Shown here: positions 49,254 to 59,963 of the stretch, in pieces
How positions within the stretch are numbered: the stretch's first letter is position 1
Layout of the letters: each line of letters begins with the position of its first letter
Origin: an uncultured Methanosarcinales archaeon
GTDB taxonomy: Archaea; Nanobdellota; Nanobdellia; Woesearchaeales; CAXGTL01
Direction of reading: 5' to 3'
NCBI GenBank assembly: GCA_964535955.1
Contig: CAZHVK010000009.1
Span: 1-64,000, forward strand
DNA: 64,000 nucleotides
Notes under the pieces: model-generated
Databases searched by the model: none
Told to the model about the DNA's origin: nothing
The model's input: the letters and a program-made list of their open reading frames with translations, nothing else
Made by a program: the position numbers and the translations under genes

Positions 49254-49340
49254 AAATATTTTTATTTTTTTTAATCTTTTTCTTTTTTTTAATTTATAAT
49301 AGATAGATTTAAAAACAATAATATAATCCAATAGTATATC

Positions 49341-49453
49341 GCCCCAGTAGCTCAGTTGATAACGCACAGCCTTTTAAAAAAAGCCTGGGGAAAACAAGTG
49401 CGGCATGCGCTCACTGCATTCGCTTAGCCACACGATCACCATCACATATTTAT
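49341..49453 (+). other. Duplicated tRNA-Thr 5' end followed by a structured spacer
   Basis: GCCCCAGTAGCTCAGT at 49341 and 49454. Confidence 0.75.
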
Positions 49454-49571
49454 GCCCCAGTAGCTCAGTGGCTAGAGCATCTGCCTTGTATATAATTACA
49501 GAAAGCAGAAGGTCACCGGTTCAAGACCATTCTACAGAAAAAGTAGGTGAGTGAAAGTCCGGTCTGGGGCT
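49454..49571 (+). tRNA. tRNA-Thr(UGU) with two introns (37/38 at 49491-49503; 59/60 at 49526-49557)
   Basis: Acceptor GCCCCAG/CTGGGGC, anticodon stem TCTGC/GCAGA, T stem ACCGG/CCGGT; TTCA/TGAA helix with 3-nt bulges. Confidence 0.9.
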
Positions 49572-55185: not shown

Positions 55186-56178
55186 ATGAAAGAAAGACTG
55201 CCATTTGAAAAAATAGAAAGAAAAGTTCTTACTAAAAAACAAGCTGAGACTTCTGATAAGTTTGGTTGTGATCCTAATAATAGGTCAGTTGATGAACTAA
55301 TTAACTATGGCATTATTAACATAGACAAACAAAAAGGGCCAACATCTCACCAAGTAACAGCTTATGCAAAAGACATTCTTAAAATAAACAAAGCTGGACA
55401 CAGTGGCACACTTGATCCAAAAGTCACAGGTGTTTTGCCAACAGCAATAGGGAGAGGTACAAGAGTAGTCCAAACCTTATTAATAGCAGGCAAAGAATAT
55501 GTTTGTCTAATGTATTTACATAAAAAAGCAGATGAAAACCATATAAGAGCAACAATGAAGAGTTTTGTTGGCAGGATTGAACAAATGCCGCCTGTCAAAA
55601 GTGCTATTAAAAGACAGCTCAGAAAACGTTCTATTTATTATTTAGACATATTAGATATTAAAGACCAATCAGTATTGTTCAGAGTTGGTTGTGAAGCAGG
55701 AACTTATATTAGAAAACTTTGCCATGATATTGGAAAACAACTTGGTATAGGAGCACACATGTCAGAACTTCGAAGAACAAAAGTTGCATGTTTTACAGAA
55801 GAATCATTAGTAACATTAAATGATATCAAAGATTCATTATGGTATTACCAGAATGAAGGTAATGAAAAATATATCAGACATGTTATCCAACCGATAGAGT
55901 TTGGTGTTAGGCATATTCCAAAGATTTGGGTGCTTGACACAACTGTTAATTCTTTATGTCATGGTGCTAATCTAAAAATACCTGGTATATCTAAATTACA
56001 TTCAGATATAAAAAAAGGTGATATTATAGCTGTTATGACACTTAAAGATGAGTTAGTATGTATTGGCGAATCAATTACAACTTCTAAGGATATCATGAAA
56101 AATAATAAAGGTCTTTGTGTTATTATCAATAAGGTCTTTATGCTTCCAGGTATTTATCCAAGAATTGAGAAAAAGTAA
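55186..56178 (+). CDS. cbf5: H/ACA pseudouridine synthase Cbf5 (TruB family)
   Basis: GPTSH, GHSGTLDPKVTGVL, GTYIRKLCHD, PUA domain. Confidence 0.96.
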   Translation: MKERLPFEKIERKVLTKKQAETSDKFGCDPNNRSVDELINYGIINIDKQKGPTSHQVTAYAKDILKINKAGHSGTLDPKVTGVLPTAIGRGTRVVQTLLIAGKEYVCLMYLHKKADENHIRATMKSFVGRIEQMPPVKSAIKRQLRKRSIYYLDILDIKDQSVLFRVGCEAGTYIRKLCHDIGKQLGIGAHMSELRRTKVACFTEESLVTLNDIKDSLWYYQNEGNEKYIRHVIQPIEFGVRHIPKIWVLDTTVNSLCHGANLKIPGISKLHSDIKKGDIIAVMTLKDELVCIGESITTSKDIMKNNKGLCVIINKVFMLPGIYPRIEKK

Positions 56179-56179
56179 T

Positions 56180-56464
56180 TTACTCATAAAATTCAATATT
56201 ATCATATACACCTAATTCTTTAAGTGTATCCATTCTTTTTTTGAACTTATTATATGCACCTTTTATCATTGCAAGTGGCAGATGAAGAGTAACATATCCT
56301 AAAGAATAAAGAGTACTCATTCCTTCTCTGAATTCTTGTTTTGCACCAGGTTTAATCTCTTGTTTTGCTTCTTCTTCAACACATGTTTCTAAAACTCTTG
56401 ATGAACCAATAGAAATAGCTTCACTCATCACATAATATGTTTGTTCATTTTTCACCATAACCAC
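56180..56464 (-). CDS. Hypothetical protein
   Basis: 94-aa ORF. Confidence 0.5.
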   Translation of the reverse strand: MVMVKNEQTYYVMSEAISIGSSRVLETCVEEEAKQEIKPGAKQEFREGMSTLYSLGYVTLHLPLAMIKGAYNKFKKRMDTLKELGVYDNIEFYE

Positions 56465-56555
56465 CTTTTCAAAAAAAAGGGATTGATTTTGTTTATAAGG
56501 TTTTATCTTGTGTAGAACATATTATGAAAAAGAAAGGGAAAAAAAAAGAATTATT

Positions 56556-57287
56556 TCAATATTTTAGGAATTTCTGACCTGTTGTTTTCTCAACACCTAC
56601 CCAGAATGAAGCAATTGCTTCTAAGCATTTTCGGCAAGTATATAATGTTGAAGCTTCCCATAACATGTTACAGTTTAGTTTTTGTTCATCTTCGTAACCA
56701 TTAACAATTGCATATTTTGAATCATGGTGTTCATCAAACCCTAGTAAATGACCTGCTTCATGTTTTGCCATATGTTTAATAAAATCTAAGGAATTTTGTC
56801 TTCCATTTGGTAAAGCTAAAACCATATAACCTTTAAAAAATTCTGCTTGTCCCCAATCTTGTGTTCCTCTTGTTAAATATTTATCAACTAACACAACATC
56901 AGCATGAGGTGTTCCTCGTTTAGTAGGGTCTCTCCAATGTTCTGTAATAAGTTCCTTTGAGAGATGGTATCCATCAACAAAACCATTTTCCTGATTAATA
57001 GATCTATTAACTTGTTGAATCACAGTTTCATCAACTCCATAATCTTTTACTTGTAATTTTAAACCAAGCTGATTCAATAATTCTTCAATTCCAGCTTTAA
57101 CATAAGGAACTACTTTTCCATCAACACCTGGTACCCTCATAATTCTTATCTCTTTGCCCAATATCCAATTAGAACAAAAATAATCTTTGCCATCAATTCC
57201 TTCAGTACGATGATCATGATGACGATCAGCATAAACTTTGAACCAGGAATCTTGCCATTTTTCTCGTGATTTTTGTCTTTCAAACAT
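56556..57287 (-). CDS. Zinc metalloprotease, archaemetzincin-like
   Basis: HEAGHLLGFDEHH, CNM Met-turn, CRKC. Confidence 0.8.
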   Translation of the reverse strand: MFERQKSREKWQDSWFKVYADRHHDHRTEGIDGKDYFCSNWILGKEIRIMRVPGVDGKVVPYVKAGIEELLNQLGLKLQVKDYGVDETVIQQVNRSINQENGFVDGYHLSKELITEHWRDPTKRGTPHADVVLVDKYLTRGTQDWGQAEFFKGYMVLALPNGRQNSLDFIKHMAKHEAGHLLGFDEHHDSKYAIVNGYEDEQKLNCNMLWEASTLYTCRKCLEAIASFWVGVEKTTGQKFLKY

Positions 57288-57384
57288 TTTTAATATCCTC
57301 CTATTATATCTTAAGTTATATCCAAGAAACCATTGCCATTATTAAAAACCTCTTATATTCAAACCAAGATAATCCCGAAAAGAA

Positions 57385-57537
57385 TGGGTCTGGCCGGACT
57401 TTCATCTTTACAGATCTTGAACCGGCGACCATCTCGATTTTAAAAACAACTGCGTTGTTTTGAAGTTTCAACACAGTTGAAACAGTCAACGAGATGTCAT
57501 TTATGGTGTAACAACATAGCCACTAGACCACAGACCC
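57385..57537 (-). tRNA. tRNA-Val(GAC) with D-loop (57501-57517), anticodon-loop (within 57438-57484) and T-loop (57399-57415) introns
   Basis: GGGTCTG/CAGACCC, TCTCG/CGAGA, GCCGG/CCGGC stems; BHB helices GTGG/CCAT, TTGA/TTAA, TTCA/TGAA. Confidence 0.88.
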
Positions 57538-57539
57538 AA

Positions 57540-57836
57540 TCATTTACTAAGGTCAGTTATATGCAATCTTTCATCAACAAACTCAACTTTAACTTCTTTT
57601 AAATCATTAAACAAAAGATCATTTCCCCAAGGCAGAAACTTAGCAACCTTAAAATTTTTTAAATAACAACTTAATGCTCTAAACTCTAATATCTTGAAAG
57701 GCATCTTTATTGTCTTATGAGGGTTATTTATCTTAAAAAACTTTACTTGTGTATTATAAGGATACATTTCATGTTCTTCTTTATTATAATTCTTAATTCT
57801 TGATACTAACATTGATTTTGCTTTATATTTTGTCAT
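57540..57836 (-). CDS. Hypothetical protein
   Basis: GGGGTG SD; stop 3 nt before tRNA-Val. Confidence 0.65.
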   Translation of the reverse strand: MTKYKAKSMLVSRIKNYNKEEHEMYPYNTQVKFFKINNPHKTIKMPFKILEFRALSCYLKNFKVAKFLPWGNDLLFNDLKEVKVEFVDERLHITDLSK

Positions 57837-57904
57837 GTATAAACACCCCCTTATATCATAAAATACAGTCCTTACTTATATATAAATGTATCTCAAAATA
57901 ACAC

Positions 57905-58015
57905 TGGTGCAACCCGCCAGTTTGGCCAGTGAGCCAATGTTATTCATCGTAAGAATGAGTTGAGGCTCTATTTGTCCTCATAATAAATTAGAGTCGGTGA
58001 ACGAGGGTTGCACCA
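57905..58015 (+). repeat. Structured family C element copy 3
   Basis: Closing stem TGGTGCAACCC/GGGTTGCACCA; core GCCAGTTTGGC-CA-GTGAGCC ... GGTGAACGA. Confidence 0.8.
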
Positions 58016-58066
58016 ATCCTTTATAATTTACGAATAACTTATAAACTACTAATCACAATCATATTA

Positions 58067-58131
58067 TGGCCTGTGATTATGTTATTCCCGGCTGACGAAA
58101 GGATGATGAGCGGAAGTAACTTATGAGGCCA
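58067..58131 (+). ncRNA. Box C/D methylation guide sRNA
   Basis: Terminal stem TGGCC/GGCCA; C GTGATTA, D' CTGA, C' ATGATGA, D ATGA; 12-13 nt guides; TTATAAA box about 25 bp upstream. Confidence 0.8.
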
Positions 58132-58167
58132 CTATCTTTATATAGTTATAAATAATAAATAAATAAA

Positions 58168-58833
58168 ATGGTATTTAGAATCGGACATAGGGGAGCTGCA
58201 GGGTATGTTGATGAAGATACTTTAGAAAGTATAAAAAAAGCTATTGAACTAAGATGCAGCATGGTAGAGATTGATGTAAGAAAGTGTAAGTCAGGTGAAA
58301 TAATCCTTATGCATGATAAAAAAGTAAACAGGACAACTAATGGCAGAGGAAAAGTGAGAAAGATTCCTTATGAGGATATCAGAAAATTAAGAACAAAATC
58401 TGGCTACAAAGTTCCCACATTAGAACAAGCTTTAAAACTTATGAAAGGTAAATGCCAGATCAATATTGAGATAAAAGACAGACATTCTTATATTGAGATA
58501 CTTAATCTTATTGAAAAATTTGATGTTTCAGAAGATGTTATAATTTCATCTTTTAGATGGGAAGTTTTAAAAAAAATAAAAGAATTAAATCCTATTATTA
58601 AGACAGGATTATTATCAAAAAGAAGAATAGGCAGAATAAAGATTGCAAAAAGACTTGGTTGTTATAGTGTTCACCCACATTTCTCTTCTAGAATCACAAA
58701 AAGATTTGTTTACAGAGCCCATAAACACAATCTTAAGGTCATTGCCTGGACTATTAATTGGTCAGGTTTTATTGATGGTCTAAGAAAGATAGGTATTGAC
58801 GGAATTATTTCTGATTTTCCTGAAAGGATTTGA
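58168..58833 (+). CDS. Glycerophosphodiester phosphodiesterase
   Basis: IGHRGA, EIDV, MHD..V.RTTNG, NIEIK, AWTIN, GIISDFP. Confidence 0.93.
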   Translation: MVFRIGHRGAAGYVDEDTLESIKKAIELRCSMVEIDVRKCKSGEIILMHDKKVNRTTNGRGKVRKIPYEDIRKLRTKSGYKVPTLEQALKLMKGKCQINIEIKDRHSYIEILNLIEKFDVSEDVIISSFRWEVLKKIKELNPIIKTGLLSKRRIGRIKIAKRLGCYSVHPHFSSRITKRFVYRAHKHNLKVIAWTINWSGFIDGLRKIGIDGIISDFPERI

Positions 58834-58846
58834 GAAAAATAAAGAG

Positions 58847-58952
58847 AGCCCCTGGCCAGACTTTCACTAATTTCTTAGATTTGAACTGGCGACCTGTCGC
58901 TTTCTGTATAAATTATACTAGGCGACCGCTATAGCCACTAAGCTACAGGGGC
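58847..58952 (-). tRNA. tRNA-Thr(AGU) with two introns (37/38 at 58902-58915; 59/60 at 58861-58879)
   Basis: GCCCCTG/CAGGGGC, GTCGC-CT-AGT-AA-GCGAC, GCCAG/CTGGC, discriminator T. Confidence 0.85.
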
Positions 58953-59004
58953 ATAGACTAAAGGTTGTATGATTTATTTAAAAACATTTCTAAAAATAAA
59001 AGAA

Positions 59005-59499
59005 TTATTGAGGAATACTTGATTCTAAATCTGAATGTTGTTCTTTTACCTTATCCCTAAGCTTTGATCTTGCTTTATTGTATAAAGCATTGCATCTATC
59101 AAACACTCTTCTTGCATGATGAACTTTTAGACTATCGCCTTTTTTGTCATTAATAGTATAAGTTTTTTCTTCTTGTCCTTTTTCTTTTATCACTATTCTT
59201 TCTAATTCTTGACATTCATAATTATGTGCAGTAATGCTTCTTTCATTAAGCATATCCAATAGCTTATACAGTGTATCTCCTTCTTTAATAATCATCCTGT
59301 TCATATTAAGGTCATCAGCATCTTGATAAAAACAAGGTATTCCTTCATTATAATGAACATCAACAACACGCGGTGATCCTGGATCATCTGATAAATCAAT
59401 ATTACCATTATGATTAAAACTACCACATCCACCTAATGTAAGAATTCCTCCTATAAGTACTAGTGTTGTAGCTATTTTTGAAAAGTATTTTTTGATCAT
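59005..59499 (-). CDS. Putative lipoprotein
   Basis: Signal peptide ending LGGC lipobox. Confidence 0.6.
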   Translation of the reverse strand: MIKKYFSKIATTLVLIGGILTLGGCGSFNHNGNIDLSDDPGSPRVVDVHYNEGIPCFYQDADDLNMNRMIIKEGDTLYKLLDMLNERSITAHNYECQELERIVIKEKGQEEKTYTINDKKGDSLKVHHARRVFDRCNALYNKARSKLRDKVKEQHSDLESSIPQ

Positions 59500-59622
59500 A
59501 TTGTGTATGTGGAGATATTCATCCTTTATAAATGTTTCGTTTTTGCACTACTTCTGGGTGGTAATAGATTCTTAATTAAAACAATAAAATTTATATCTAA
59601 CCTCTACTTATACATCAATATA

Positions 59623-59949
59623 ATGCAAAACCTAGATGAAAAATCATTAGAAGAATTCATTCTAAACTCACAGTTTCCAGTAGCAGTGCTATTCTGGGGC
59701 TCATGGAGCCAAGCATGCAGAGAAATAGAGCCAATATTTGAAAACCTGAAACGACAATTTGCTCGAAGATTAAAGTTTGCAAAAGTAAACCTAGGTTCAA
59801 ACAAAGCTCTAGGTGACAAATTAAATGTCAGAGCAGTGCCAACAATTGTATTCTTTAATGTTGCTGCAAAACCAGTACATCAGATATCAGGTGTTTATTC
59901 TCAGGCAGATTTTACTAATAAATTTAATTCTGCTATGAATTTATTATAA
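59623..59949 (+). CDS. Thioredoxin-fold protein with SxxC site
   Basis: FWGSWSQACR, AKVN, VRAVPTI. Confidence 0.85.
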   Translation: MQNLDEKSLEEFILNSQFPVAVLFWGSWSQACREIEPIFENLKRQFARRLKFAKVNLGSNKALGDKLNVRAVPTIVFFNVAAKPVHQISGVYSQADFTNKFNSAMNLL

Positions 59950-59963
59950 TTATGTATTTTCTA

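Follow-up and report, generated by a model that had tools for sequence, protein, structure and literature searches.

A two-intron tRNA-Thr gene with an A34 (AGU) anticodon, conserved between two diverged archaeal genomes

The stretch of DNA analysed here (the window, 64 kb at its full length) is densely coding, with 28-32% GC and about 30% overall, and encodes ribosomal proteins S19e and L31e, Cbf5, NurA, a Rad50-like ATPase, IleRS and topoisomerase I. The presence of S19e, L31e, Cbf5, NurA, the Rad50-like protein and others identifies the window as archaeal. Among the best 120 relatives of Cbf5 listed, 13 had a taxon in their name, namely eight Woesearchaeota, four Nanoarchaeota and one 'archaeon', which places the window in the Woesearchaeota/Nanoarchaeota part of DPANN. 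Genomes of the host phylum are described as minimal cells centred on information processing, and related genomes as having a median of 35 tRNAs by tRNAscan-SE, a low count, and as covering all 20 amino acids in only 96 of 208 cases, in the available text of bioRxiv 10.64898/2026.05.13.725050. Heavily disrupted tRNA genes are attributed to DPANN lineages in the accessible part of PMC5829648.

On the minus strand of the window lies a tRNA-Thr gene whose three exons are separated by two introns (Table 1). The plus strand has T at base 58919, which gives A at position 34, followed by G and U at positions 35 and 36. The initial annotation had described an intact cloverleaf whose loop reads CT-AGT-AA once a 14-nt intron is removed, and this agrees both with our direct reading and with ARAGORN, which in no-intron mode, after both introns had been cut by script, returned a tRNA-Thr(agt) of 75 bases whose cloverleaf is normal. 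We found the features of a canonical cloverleaf: the stems, of 7/4/5/5 bp, all pair, the anticodon loop is 7 nt long with U33 and a purine at position 37, and the conserved tertiary bases are present. The acceptor stem has 7 bp, the anticodon stem 5 bp and the T stem 5 bp, the variable loop is 5 nt long, and the D arm contains a U13/U22 mismatch and an 8-nt loop with G18-G19; U8-A9, U33, A37, U54-U55-C56, G53-C61 and G15-C48 are all present. The pre-tRNA folds better than 200 of 200 shuffled sequences (z = -3.48). CCA is not encoded in the gene.

Table 1. Positions of the tRNA-Thr(AGU) gene, its parts and the other tRNA genes in the window.
Feature	Position	Strand	Remarks
Pre-tRNA-Thr(AGU) gene, whole	58847..58952	(-)	106 nt, 3 exons and 2 introns; custom cloverleaf scan and ARAGORN after intron removal
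Exon 1, tRNA positions 1-37: acceptor 5' strand, D arm, anticodon stem 5' strand, loop to A37	58916..58952	(-)	37/37 identical to second contig
Anticodon A34-G35-U36	58917..58919	(-)	direct reading; same three bases in second contig
Intron 1, 14 nt, canonical 37/38, relaxed splice motif	58902..58915	(-)	counterpart in second contig 12 nt
Exon 2, positions 38-59: anticodon stem 3' strand, variable loop, T stem 5' strand, most of T loop	58880..58901	(-)	22/22 identical to second contig
Intron 2, 19 nt, T loop, between 59 and 60, strict bulge-helix-bulge	58861..58879	(-)	counterpart in second contig 44 nt
Exon 3, positions 60-73: U60, T stem 3' strand, acceptor 3' strand, discriminator U73	58847..58860	(-)	14/14 identical to second contig
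Probable archaeal TATA box TTTAAATA, -30 to -23 from tRNA position 1	58975..58982	(-)	promoter function putative
T-rich run directly after discriminator, probable transcription stop	58835..58843	(-)	T run also in second contig; function putative
Partner tRNA-Thr(UGU), 118 nt, introns of 13 nt (37/38) and 32 nt (59/60)	49454..49571	(+)	ARAGORN Thr(tgt) after intron removal
Third tRNA-like gene	57537-57385	(-)	custom cloverleaf scan

The gene carries the threonine identity features G1-C72, C2-G71, C3-G70, U73, G35 and U36; the three acceptor-stem pairs are presumably the specific identity pairs of archaeal ThrRS. In Haloferax volcanii, threonine identity is assigned to acceptor-stem base pairs, anticodon nucleotides and U73 in the available text of PMC9976931. 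Given splicing at 37/38, AGU has the NGU form of a threonine anticodon. The assignment to an archaeal threonine-type tRNA, made originally from sequence inspection, is thus upheld by the NGU anticodon together with S19e, L31e, Cbf5, NurA and the Rad50-like protein in the same window. A second threonine gene, tRNA-Thr(UGU), lies 9.4 kb away. The resemblance between the two, which had also been pointed out before, extends to 56 of 73 exon positions, both intron positions and U73.

The initial annotation had proposed that the introns could hide the gene from automated annotation, and this is what we observed. ARAGORN found no tRNA gene in the raw 64-kb window, either by default or in two intron modes, and Rfam at gathering score gave no match in the same 64 kb. 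When the Rfam tRNA model was run at E<=10, the only tRNA match fell within the UGU gene (49459-49533) and scored 26.4 bits, below the cut-off of 29; the other matches in E-value mode were at chance level, and window positions 1-48000 gave no tRNA match. A custom scan, built on a T loop, its stem (with room for an insertion), an acceptor stem of 7 bp and a D stem, returned 17 rows, three of them tRNA-like and the other 14 AT-rich coding sequence. A regular expression for anticodon arms with an NGU loop revealed no third Thr gene in the window, its dozens of chance matches lying inside coding sequence. The region upstream of the UGU gene (49338-49453) had no more structure than shuffled sequences on either strand (z = -0.28 and +0.43).

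Since the anticodon depends on where the introns are cut, we examined both splice sites. The bulge-helix-bulge motif consists of two 3-nt bulges separated by a 4-bp helix, and relaxed forms lose one bulge, as defined in the accessible part of PMC5829648. The T-loop intron agrees with this strict published definition (PMC5829648): its central helix, UUCA/UGAA, has four of four pairs, formed between U54-U55-C56-A57 and the intron, the bulges read AA|U and AG|U, and the intron is closed by an inner hairpin of 4 bp. The same T-loop site and intron end are found in tRNA-Thr(UGU) and in the window's tRNA-Val, each with four of four pairs. The anticodon-loop intron, on the other hand, has a relaxed splice motif in the AGU gene, the UGU gene and the orthologue described below. 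In all three Thr genes, only two of the four central pairs form (C32-G and U33-A), compared with four of four in the tRNA-Val genes (n=2). Its 3' bulge, AA|A, adjoins the anticodon stem, and there is no clear inner helix. Because the 37/38 motif is weak, we infer the 5' splice site at A37 from the 3' bulge, which fixes A38 as the start of the 3' exon, and from the need for a 7-nt loop. The resulting anticodon loop is C-U-A-G-U-A-A. An exhaustive search of other bulge-helix-bulge placements found none that was common to the three Thr genes and compatible with the cloverleaf. The reading of A34 depends on splicing at 37/38, and it is supported by the 3' bulge and by this absence of an alternative motif. 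No match to an endonuclease family was found in the 61 scanned ORFs of the 64-kb window.

If the intron were cut elsewhere in the loop, the anticodon would read AGA, and ARAGORN gave some ground for this possibility in addition to the weakness of the motif at 37/38. Run in intron mode on 561 variants of the AGU gene that lacked the T-loop segment, ARAGORN called a tRNA in 43, and all of the first 40 of these 43 matches were Ser(aga) with a 14-nt intron directly after the stem. However, the UGU gene was likewise read as 'aga' (first 40 of 69 matches), and this shared result arises from the last 7 nt of the intron, which are the same in both genes. Serine-type tRNAs have a long variable arm. The Ser(aga) reading would place a C at position 33, where U is near-universal, on a tRNA body that has a 5-nt variable loop and U73 and so is unlike the long-arm serine type; we rejected it as an artefact of intron placement. 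In all three Thr genes the 3' bulge beside the stem makes the 3' exon begin at A38, and they share no alternative splice motif. Taken with the recurrence of the same A at position 34 in two independent assemblies, these observations make it very improbable that the anticodon is other than AGU or that the A is an assembly error.

The second of these assemblies came from a scan of species-representative genomes with a pattern that described the 5' half of a tRNA-Thr and allowed A or G at position 34. The pattern was narrow, with GCCC fixed at the 5' end and AGTGG fixed in the D loop, and it matched 15 loci (eight with archaeal and seven with bacterial titles), with A34 in four and G34 in 11; given so narrow a pattern and only 15 loci, the scan is no measure of A34 frequency. 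None of the loci comes from the window's own genome. One of the A34 loci lies on contig CAYWFN010000033.1 (7,005 bp, 27.5% GC), where the tRNA-Thr(AGU) gene occupies positions 1666-1538 on the minus strand. This contig is syntenic with 55924-59950 of the window, both having the end of Cbf5, a 98-aa ORF, tRNA-Val, tRNA-Thr(AGU), a 164-aa ORF and thioredoxin, and the two are 67-89% identical at the nucleotide level over nine aligned pieces. The depositor's label for the contig, 'Methanosarcinales', is doubtful in view of the Woesearchaeota and Nanoarchaeota relatives of Cbf5 and the 27.5% GC.

We compared the tRNA-Thr(AGU) genes of these two genomes, on which all that we say of conservation rests, and found that their exons are identical at 73 of 73 positions, A34 included. 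The introns have changed: 8 of 14 positions can be aligned in intron 1 and 19 of 44 in intron 2. Upstream of the gene 37 of 56 flanking positions match and downstream of it 37 of 60, the four flanking proteins are identical at 66/98, 50/157, 80/109 and 63/84 residues (32-75%), and the adjacent tRNA-Val differs at three of 73 exon positions. Outside the exons, both genomes retain the TATA-like box at -30 and the T run that follows the discriminator, the second contig having the conserved 9-nt stretch TTTTTAAAT at the same distance as the TATA-like box of the window. The claim that A34 is encoded therefore stands, both from the T on the plus strand at 58919 and from the same A in an independent second assembly, which excludes a read or assembly error at this base. 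Constant exons, A34 among them, amid changed introns and flanks are the signature of a gene in use. The gene shows neither a truncated or mismatched cloverleaf nor neutral decay relative to its orthologue, as a pseudogene or an integration-derived fragment (van der Gulik et al., PMC9897764) would, and exon conservation argues against a decaying pseudogene, which we consider unlikely. The same holds for an option raised in the initial annotation, neutral drift from G34 to A34 in a dying gene, as all 73 exon positions have been kept while the introns diverged. Together, these comparisons suggest that this is very probably a functional gene with A34 encoded.

A functional gene might still be a redundant extra copy, in which a change from G34 to A34 is tolerated or marginally useful while a normal tRNA-Thr(GGU) serves elsewhere in the genome. 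Neither the 64-kb window nor the second contig (7 kb) yielded a tRNA-Thr(GGU), but such a gene could easily be missed, because all three window tRNAs escape ARAGORN and Rfam and the window covers 64 kb of the genome. In E. coli, A34 variants of tRNAs for fourfold-degenerate codon boxes work and are mostly neutral or beneficial, according to the available text of bioRxiv 10.64898/2026.05.15.725136. Moreover, the other archaeal A34 match in our scan has two Thr(tgt) genes as neighbours and two mismatches in its acceptor stem, which indicates that dispensable A34 copies do arise. The conservation of the gene studied here is hard to reconcile with dispensability: 73 of 73 exon positions were kept next to diverged introns and flanking proteins of 32-75% identity, over a time in which the presumably essential tRNA-Val changed at three of 73, and the locus lies within the conserved core synteny of Cbf5, small ORF, tRNA and thioredoxin. 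In addition, the median of 35 tRNAs given for related genomes in the accessible part of bioRxiv 10.64898/2026.05.13.725050 leaves little room for redundancy. We therefore regard a redundant copy as unlikely, and propose that tRNA-Thr(AGU) may have taken the place of tRNA-Thr(GGU) instead of coexisting with it. The window's tRNA-Val carries G34, so the lineage has not shifted to A34 in general.

Threonine codon usage suits A34 in both genomes. In the window (32 ORFs, 13,515 codons) we counted 188 ACT, 22 ACC, 415 ACA and 7 ACG codons, and in the second contig (eight ORFs, 1,722 codons) 24 ACT, 0 ACC, 58 ACA and 1 ACG. The share of C-ending codons among C- and U-ending codons in the window was 10.5% for Thr, compared with 6.7% (Ala), 4.6% (Pro) and 8.1% (Ser); ACC is thus no more avoided than the C-ending codons of Ala, Pro and Ser, and codon usage holds no A34-specific signal. 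The lack of a penalty on ACC is equally consistent with inosine, with a hidden GGU gene or with plain mutational bias, and the ACC codons must still have some tRNA to read them.

One such reader would be an inosine tRNA. In eukaryotes, the cytosolic tRNA-Thr(AGU) is converted to IGU by ADAT2/ADAT3, and a GGU gene is lacking by rule. If the A34 of the archaeal gene were likewise turned into inosine, by an unrecognised archaeal deaminase, the same functional gene would read ACU, ACC and ACA, like the eukaryotic tRNA-Thr(IGU). Efficient reading of ACC by inosine would permit its use at 22 of 632 threonine codons and at an ACC:ACT ratio not below that of Ala, Pro or Ser, and the strict conservation of A34 fits a base required as deaminase substrate. 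A34-encoded tRNAs of the other domains are mostly converted to inosine, according to the available text of PMC11066159. On the other side, no A34-specific deaminase is identified in archaea in the accessible part of PMC8007984, and we found no deaminase domain in the 61 ORFs scanned across the 64 kb (59 of at least 120 aa and two shorter ones). The minimal, information-processing-centred genomes described for the host phylum in the available text of bioRxiv 10.64898/2026.05.13.725050 also speak against an additional enzyme of this kind, as does the Thr(AGU)/Thr(UGU) pair of Mycoplasma, which functions without inosine (PMC11066159, as far as its available text goes). Unmodified and deaminated A34 would be expected to have the same DNA sequence and so cannot be told apart from DNA; on the evidence given, we consider deamination quite improbable. 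A more specific proposal, in which a Woesearchaeota-like DPANN lineage has replaced the tRNA-Thr(GGU) universal in archaea with tRNA-Thr(AGU) and makes inosine at A34 by a novel kind of deaminase, is a longer shot still. If true, it would be the first wobble-inosine system in Archaea.

We favour, by a modest degree of confidence for the chain as a whole, a working chromosomal tRNA-Thr(AGU) that reads ACU with an unmodified A34 in a small, AT-rich archaeon of the Woesearchaeota/Nanoarchaeota type. The reasons are the AGU and UGU pair in a small AT-rich genome, as in Mycoplasma, the codon usage and the bacterial precedent for A34. In Mycoplasma, an authentic A34 tRNA-Thr decoded ACU, ACC and ACG in vitro, as reported in the available text of PMC11066159, which cites Andachi 1987 and Inagaki 1995. 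Among bacterial ANN tRNAs other than those for Arg, Thr-AGT is the most frequent, according to the accessible part of bioRxiv 10.64898/2026.05.15.725136. We found the Mollicutes-type combination here: an encoded A34, a tRNA-Thr(UGU) partner, an AT-rich genome and ACU far more frequent than ACC (188 versus 22).

Beyond what the DNA shows, we propose the following steps, from transcription and splicing through charging to the state of A34. The primary transcript would probably start about 25 nt downstream of the TATA box. The archaeal splicing endonuclease would remove the relaxed intron at 37/38 and the strict intron at 59/60, a ligase would join the exons, and CCA would be added after splicing. 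ThrRS would then charge the tRNA by way of the G1-C72, C2-G71, C3-G70 stem, U73 and G35-U36. Most likely A34 would stay unmodified and form a Watson-Crick pair with the U of ACU, ACA and ACG would be read by the neighbouring tRNA-Thr(UGU), and the rare ACC could be read weakly by A34 or by the U34 tRNA.

That ANN anticodons are generally absent from archaea and that A34 editing is not known there, which the initial annotation took as established, is in print: all ANN anticodons are described as missing in Archaea, and no A34-specific deaminase as known there, in the available text of PMC8007984 and PMC11066159. GtRNAdb holds three ANN anticodons among 10,517 predicted archaeal tRNAs, as given in the accessible part of bioRxiv 10.64898/2026.05.15.725136, and the tRNA tables of Aeropyrum pernix and Sulfolobus tokodaii contain no Thr(AGU) (PMC4307357). 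Archaeal tRNA predictions that depart from the norm often prove to be fragments or errors (PMC9897764); the tRNA-Thr(AGU) gene is unlike these because it is full-length and conserved. The literature searched, which lay largely outside subscription journals, yielded no description of an A34 tRNA that is conserved in archaea.

Among known systems, the gene is an archaeal tRNA-Thr by family and a multi-intron DPANN tRNA gene by class. It shares with the standard archaeal tRNA-Thr set (GGU, UGU and CGU) its cloverleaf, acceptor stem, U73 and introns at canonical and non-canonical sites with bulge-helix-bulge motifs (strict in the T loop, relaxed at 37/38), and differs in that the purine-34 threonine isoacceptor found here has A and not G. 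With the tRNA-Thr(AGU) of Mycoplasma capricolum and other Mollicutes it has in common AGU in the DNA, a tRNA-Thr(UGU) partner, a small AT-rich genome and the dominance of U- and A-ending Thr codons, but it is known from DNA, in an archaeal host, and has an archaeal-type body with U73, no encoded CCA and two endonuclease-type introns. The eukaryotic cytosolic tRNA-Thr(AGU) resembles it in having A34 in the threonine box and in being spliced by a related endonuclease system; the difference lies in the ADAT/TadA homologue, of which none is known in archaea according to the available text of PMC8007984 and none was seen in the window ORFs scanned. The novelty appears to lie in an archaeal A34 anticodon that is apparently maintained by selection, as judged from the two genomes compared. 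A tRNA with A34 that stays unchanged at every base in diverged archaeal genomes would truly depart from the rule that archaea have no ANN anticodons. It would also be a third independent setting with A34 in the threonine box, after Mollicutes and eukaryotes, and would offer a natural test of decoding by unmodified A34 on an archaeal ribosome.

The intron arrangement itself has precedents. Multi-intron 'disrupted' tRNAs of DPANN and Thermoproteales likewise have introns at 37/38 and in the T loop, with strict and relaxed motifs mixed, and in the accessible part of PMC5829648 they are treated for their gene structure and not for an A34 anticodon. Standard tools undercount the tRNA sets of DPANN, as exemplified by the window, all three of whose tRNAs were missed by ARAGORN and by Rfam at gathering score, and tRNAs reported as 'missing' from DPANN genomes may therefore be hidden in the same way.

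A third hidden tRNA gene of the window is a tRNA-Val(gac) gene lying near the tRNA-Thr(AGU) gene, and ARAGORN returned this identity once the introns had been cut out in script. The introns are 17 nt in the D loop, 46 nt in the anticodon loop and 17 nt in the T loop at position 59/60. Splicing by the bulge rule would place a U at position 37, an unusual base there; a cut shifted one base earlier would give A. We found an ortholog in L001, a contig syntenic with part of the window, and its exons differ from those of the window gene at 3 of 73 positions. The L001 gene has introns of 39 nt in the D loop and 17 nt in the anticodon loop and lacks the T-loop intron. By this comparison, introns have been gained or lost between the two species.

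Introns at 59/60 are present in all three window tRNA genes, and each ends in the same 3' six nucleotides, TGAAAG, just before U60. These identical ends suggest that a single intron family is spreading among tRNA genes.

Features located in the window, L001 and L006
Feature	Sequence	Position	Strand	Remarks
Degenerate copy of tRNA-Thr(UGU) 5' end	window	49341-49366		26 nt
59/60 intron of tRNA-Thr(UGU)	window	49526-49557		
tRNA-Val(gac) gene	window	57385-57537	minus	153 nt, three introns; ARAGORN call after in-script intron removal
59/60 intron of tRNA-Val(gac)	window	57399-57415		
GDPD-family phosphodiesterase gene	window	58168-58833		
59/60 intron of tRNA-Thr(AGU)	window	58861-58879		
tRNA-Val(gac) ortholog	L001	896-1024	minus	
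tRNA cluster: Thr(agt), Thr(tgt), Thr(tgt), Gln(ttg)	L006	9962-11043		Nitrosopumilaceae contig

The end of the GDPD-family gene lies 14 nt from the tRNA-Thr(AGU) 3' end. L001 lacks this gene, and in its syntenic region the two flanks directly adjoin each other; the difference is an insertion or deletion right at the tRNA 3' end. The depositor labelled L001 as Methanosarcinales. This contig is probably mis-binned or mislabelled, because it has 27.5% GC over its whole length and is syntenic with the window, whose Cbf5 relatives, where named among the matches listed, are from Woesearchaeota or Nanoarchaeota.

The degenerate copy, which lies 113 nt upstream of tRNA-Thr(UGU), matches the first 26 nt of that gene at 85%. 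It is followed by a stretch of unusually high GC content (about 50%, against 30% for the genome), and folding of both strands of this stretch revealed no significant structure. The region may be a remnant of integration or duplication, or a transcribed leader.

In the window coding regions, C-ending NCN codons are extremely rare within their own boxes (ACC, 3.5%; GCC, 2.5%; CCC, 2.1%; TCC, 3.6%), whereas GTC (9.1%) and GGC (13.5%) are far commoner. In L006, another archaeal locus with A34, the four tRNA genes form a tight cluster spanning about 1.1 kb. Thr(agt), the copy with A34, has two mismatches at the bottom of its acceptor stem; it may be a duplicate in decay or may belong to a mobile element.
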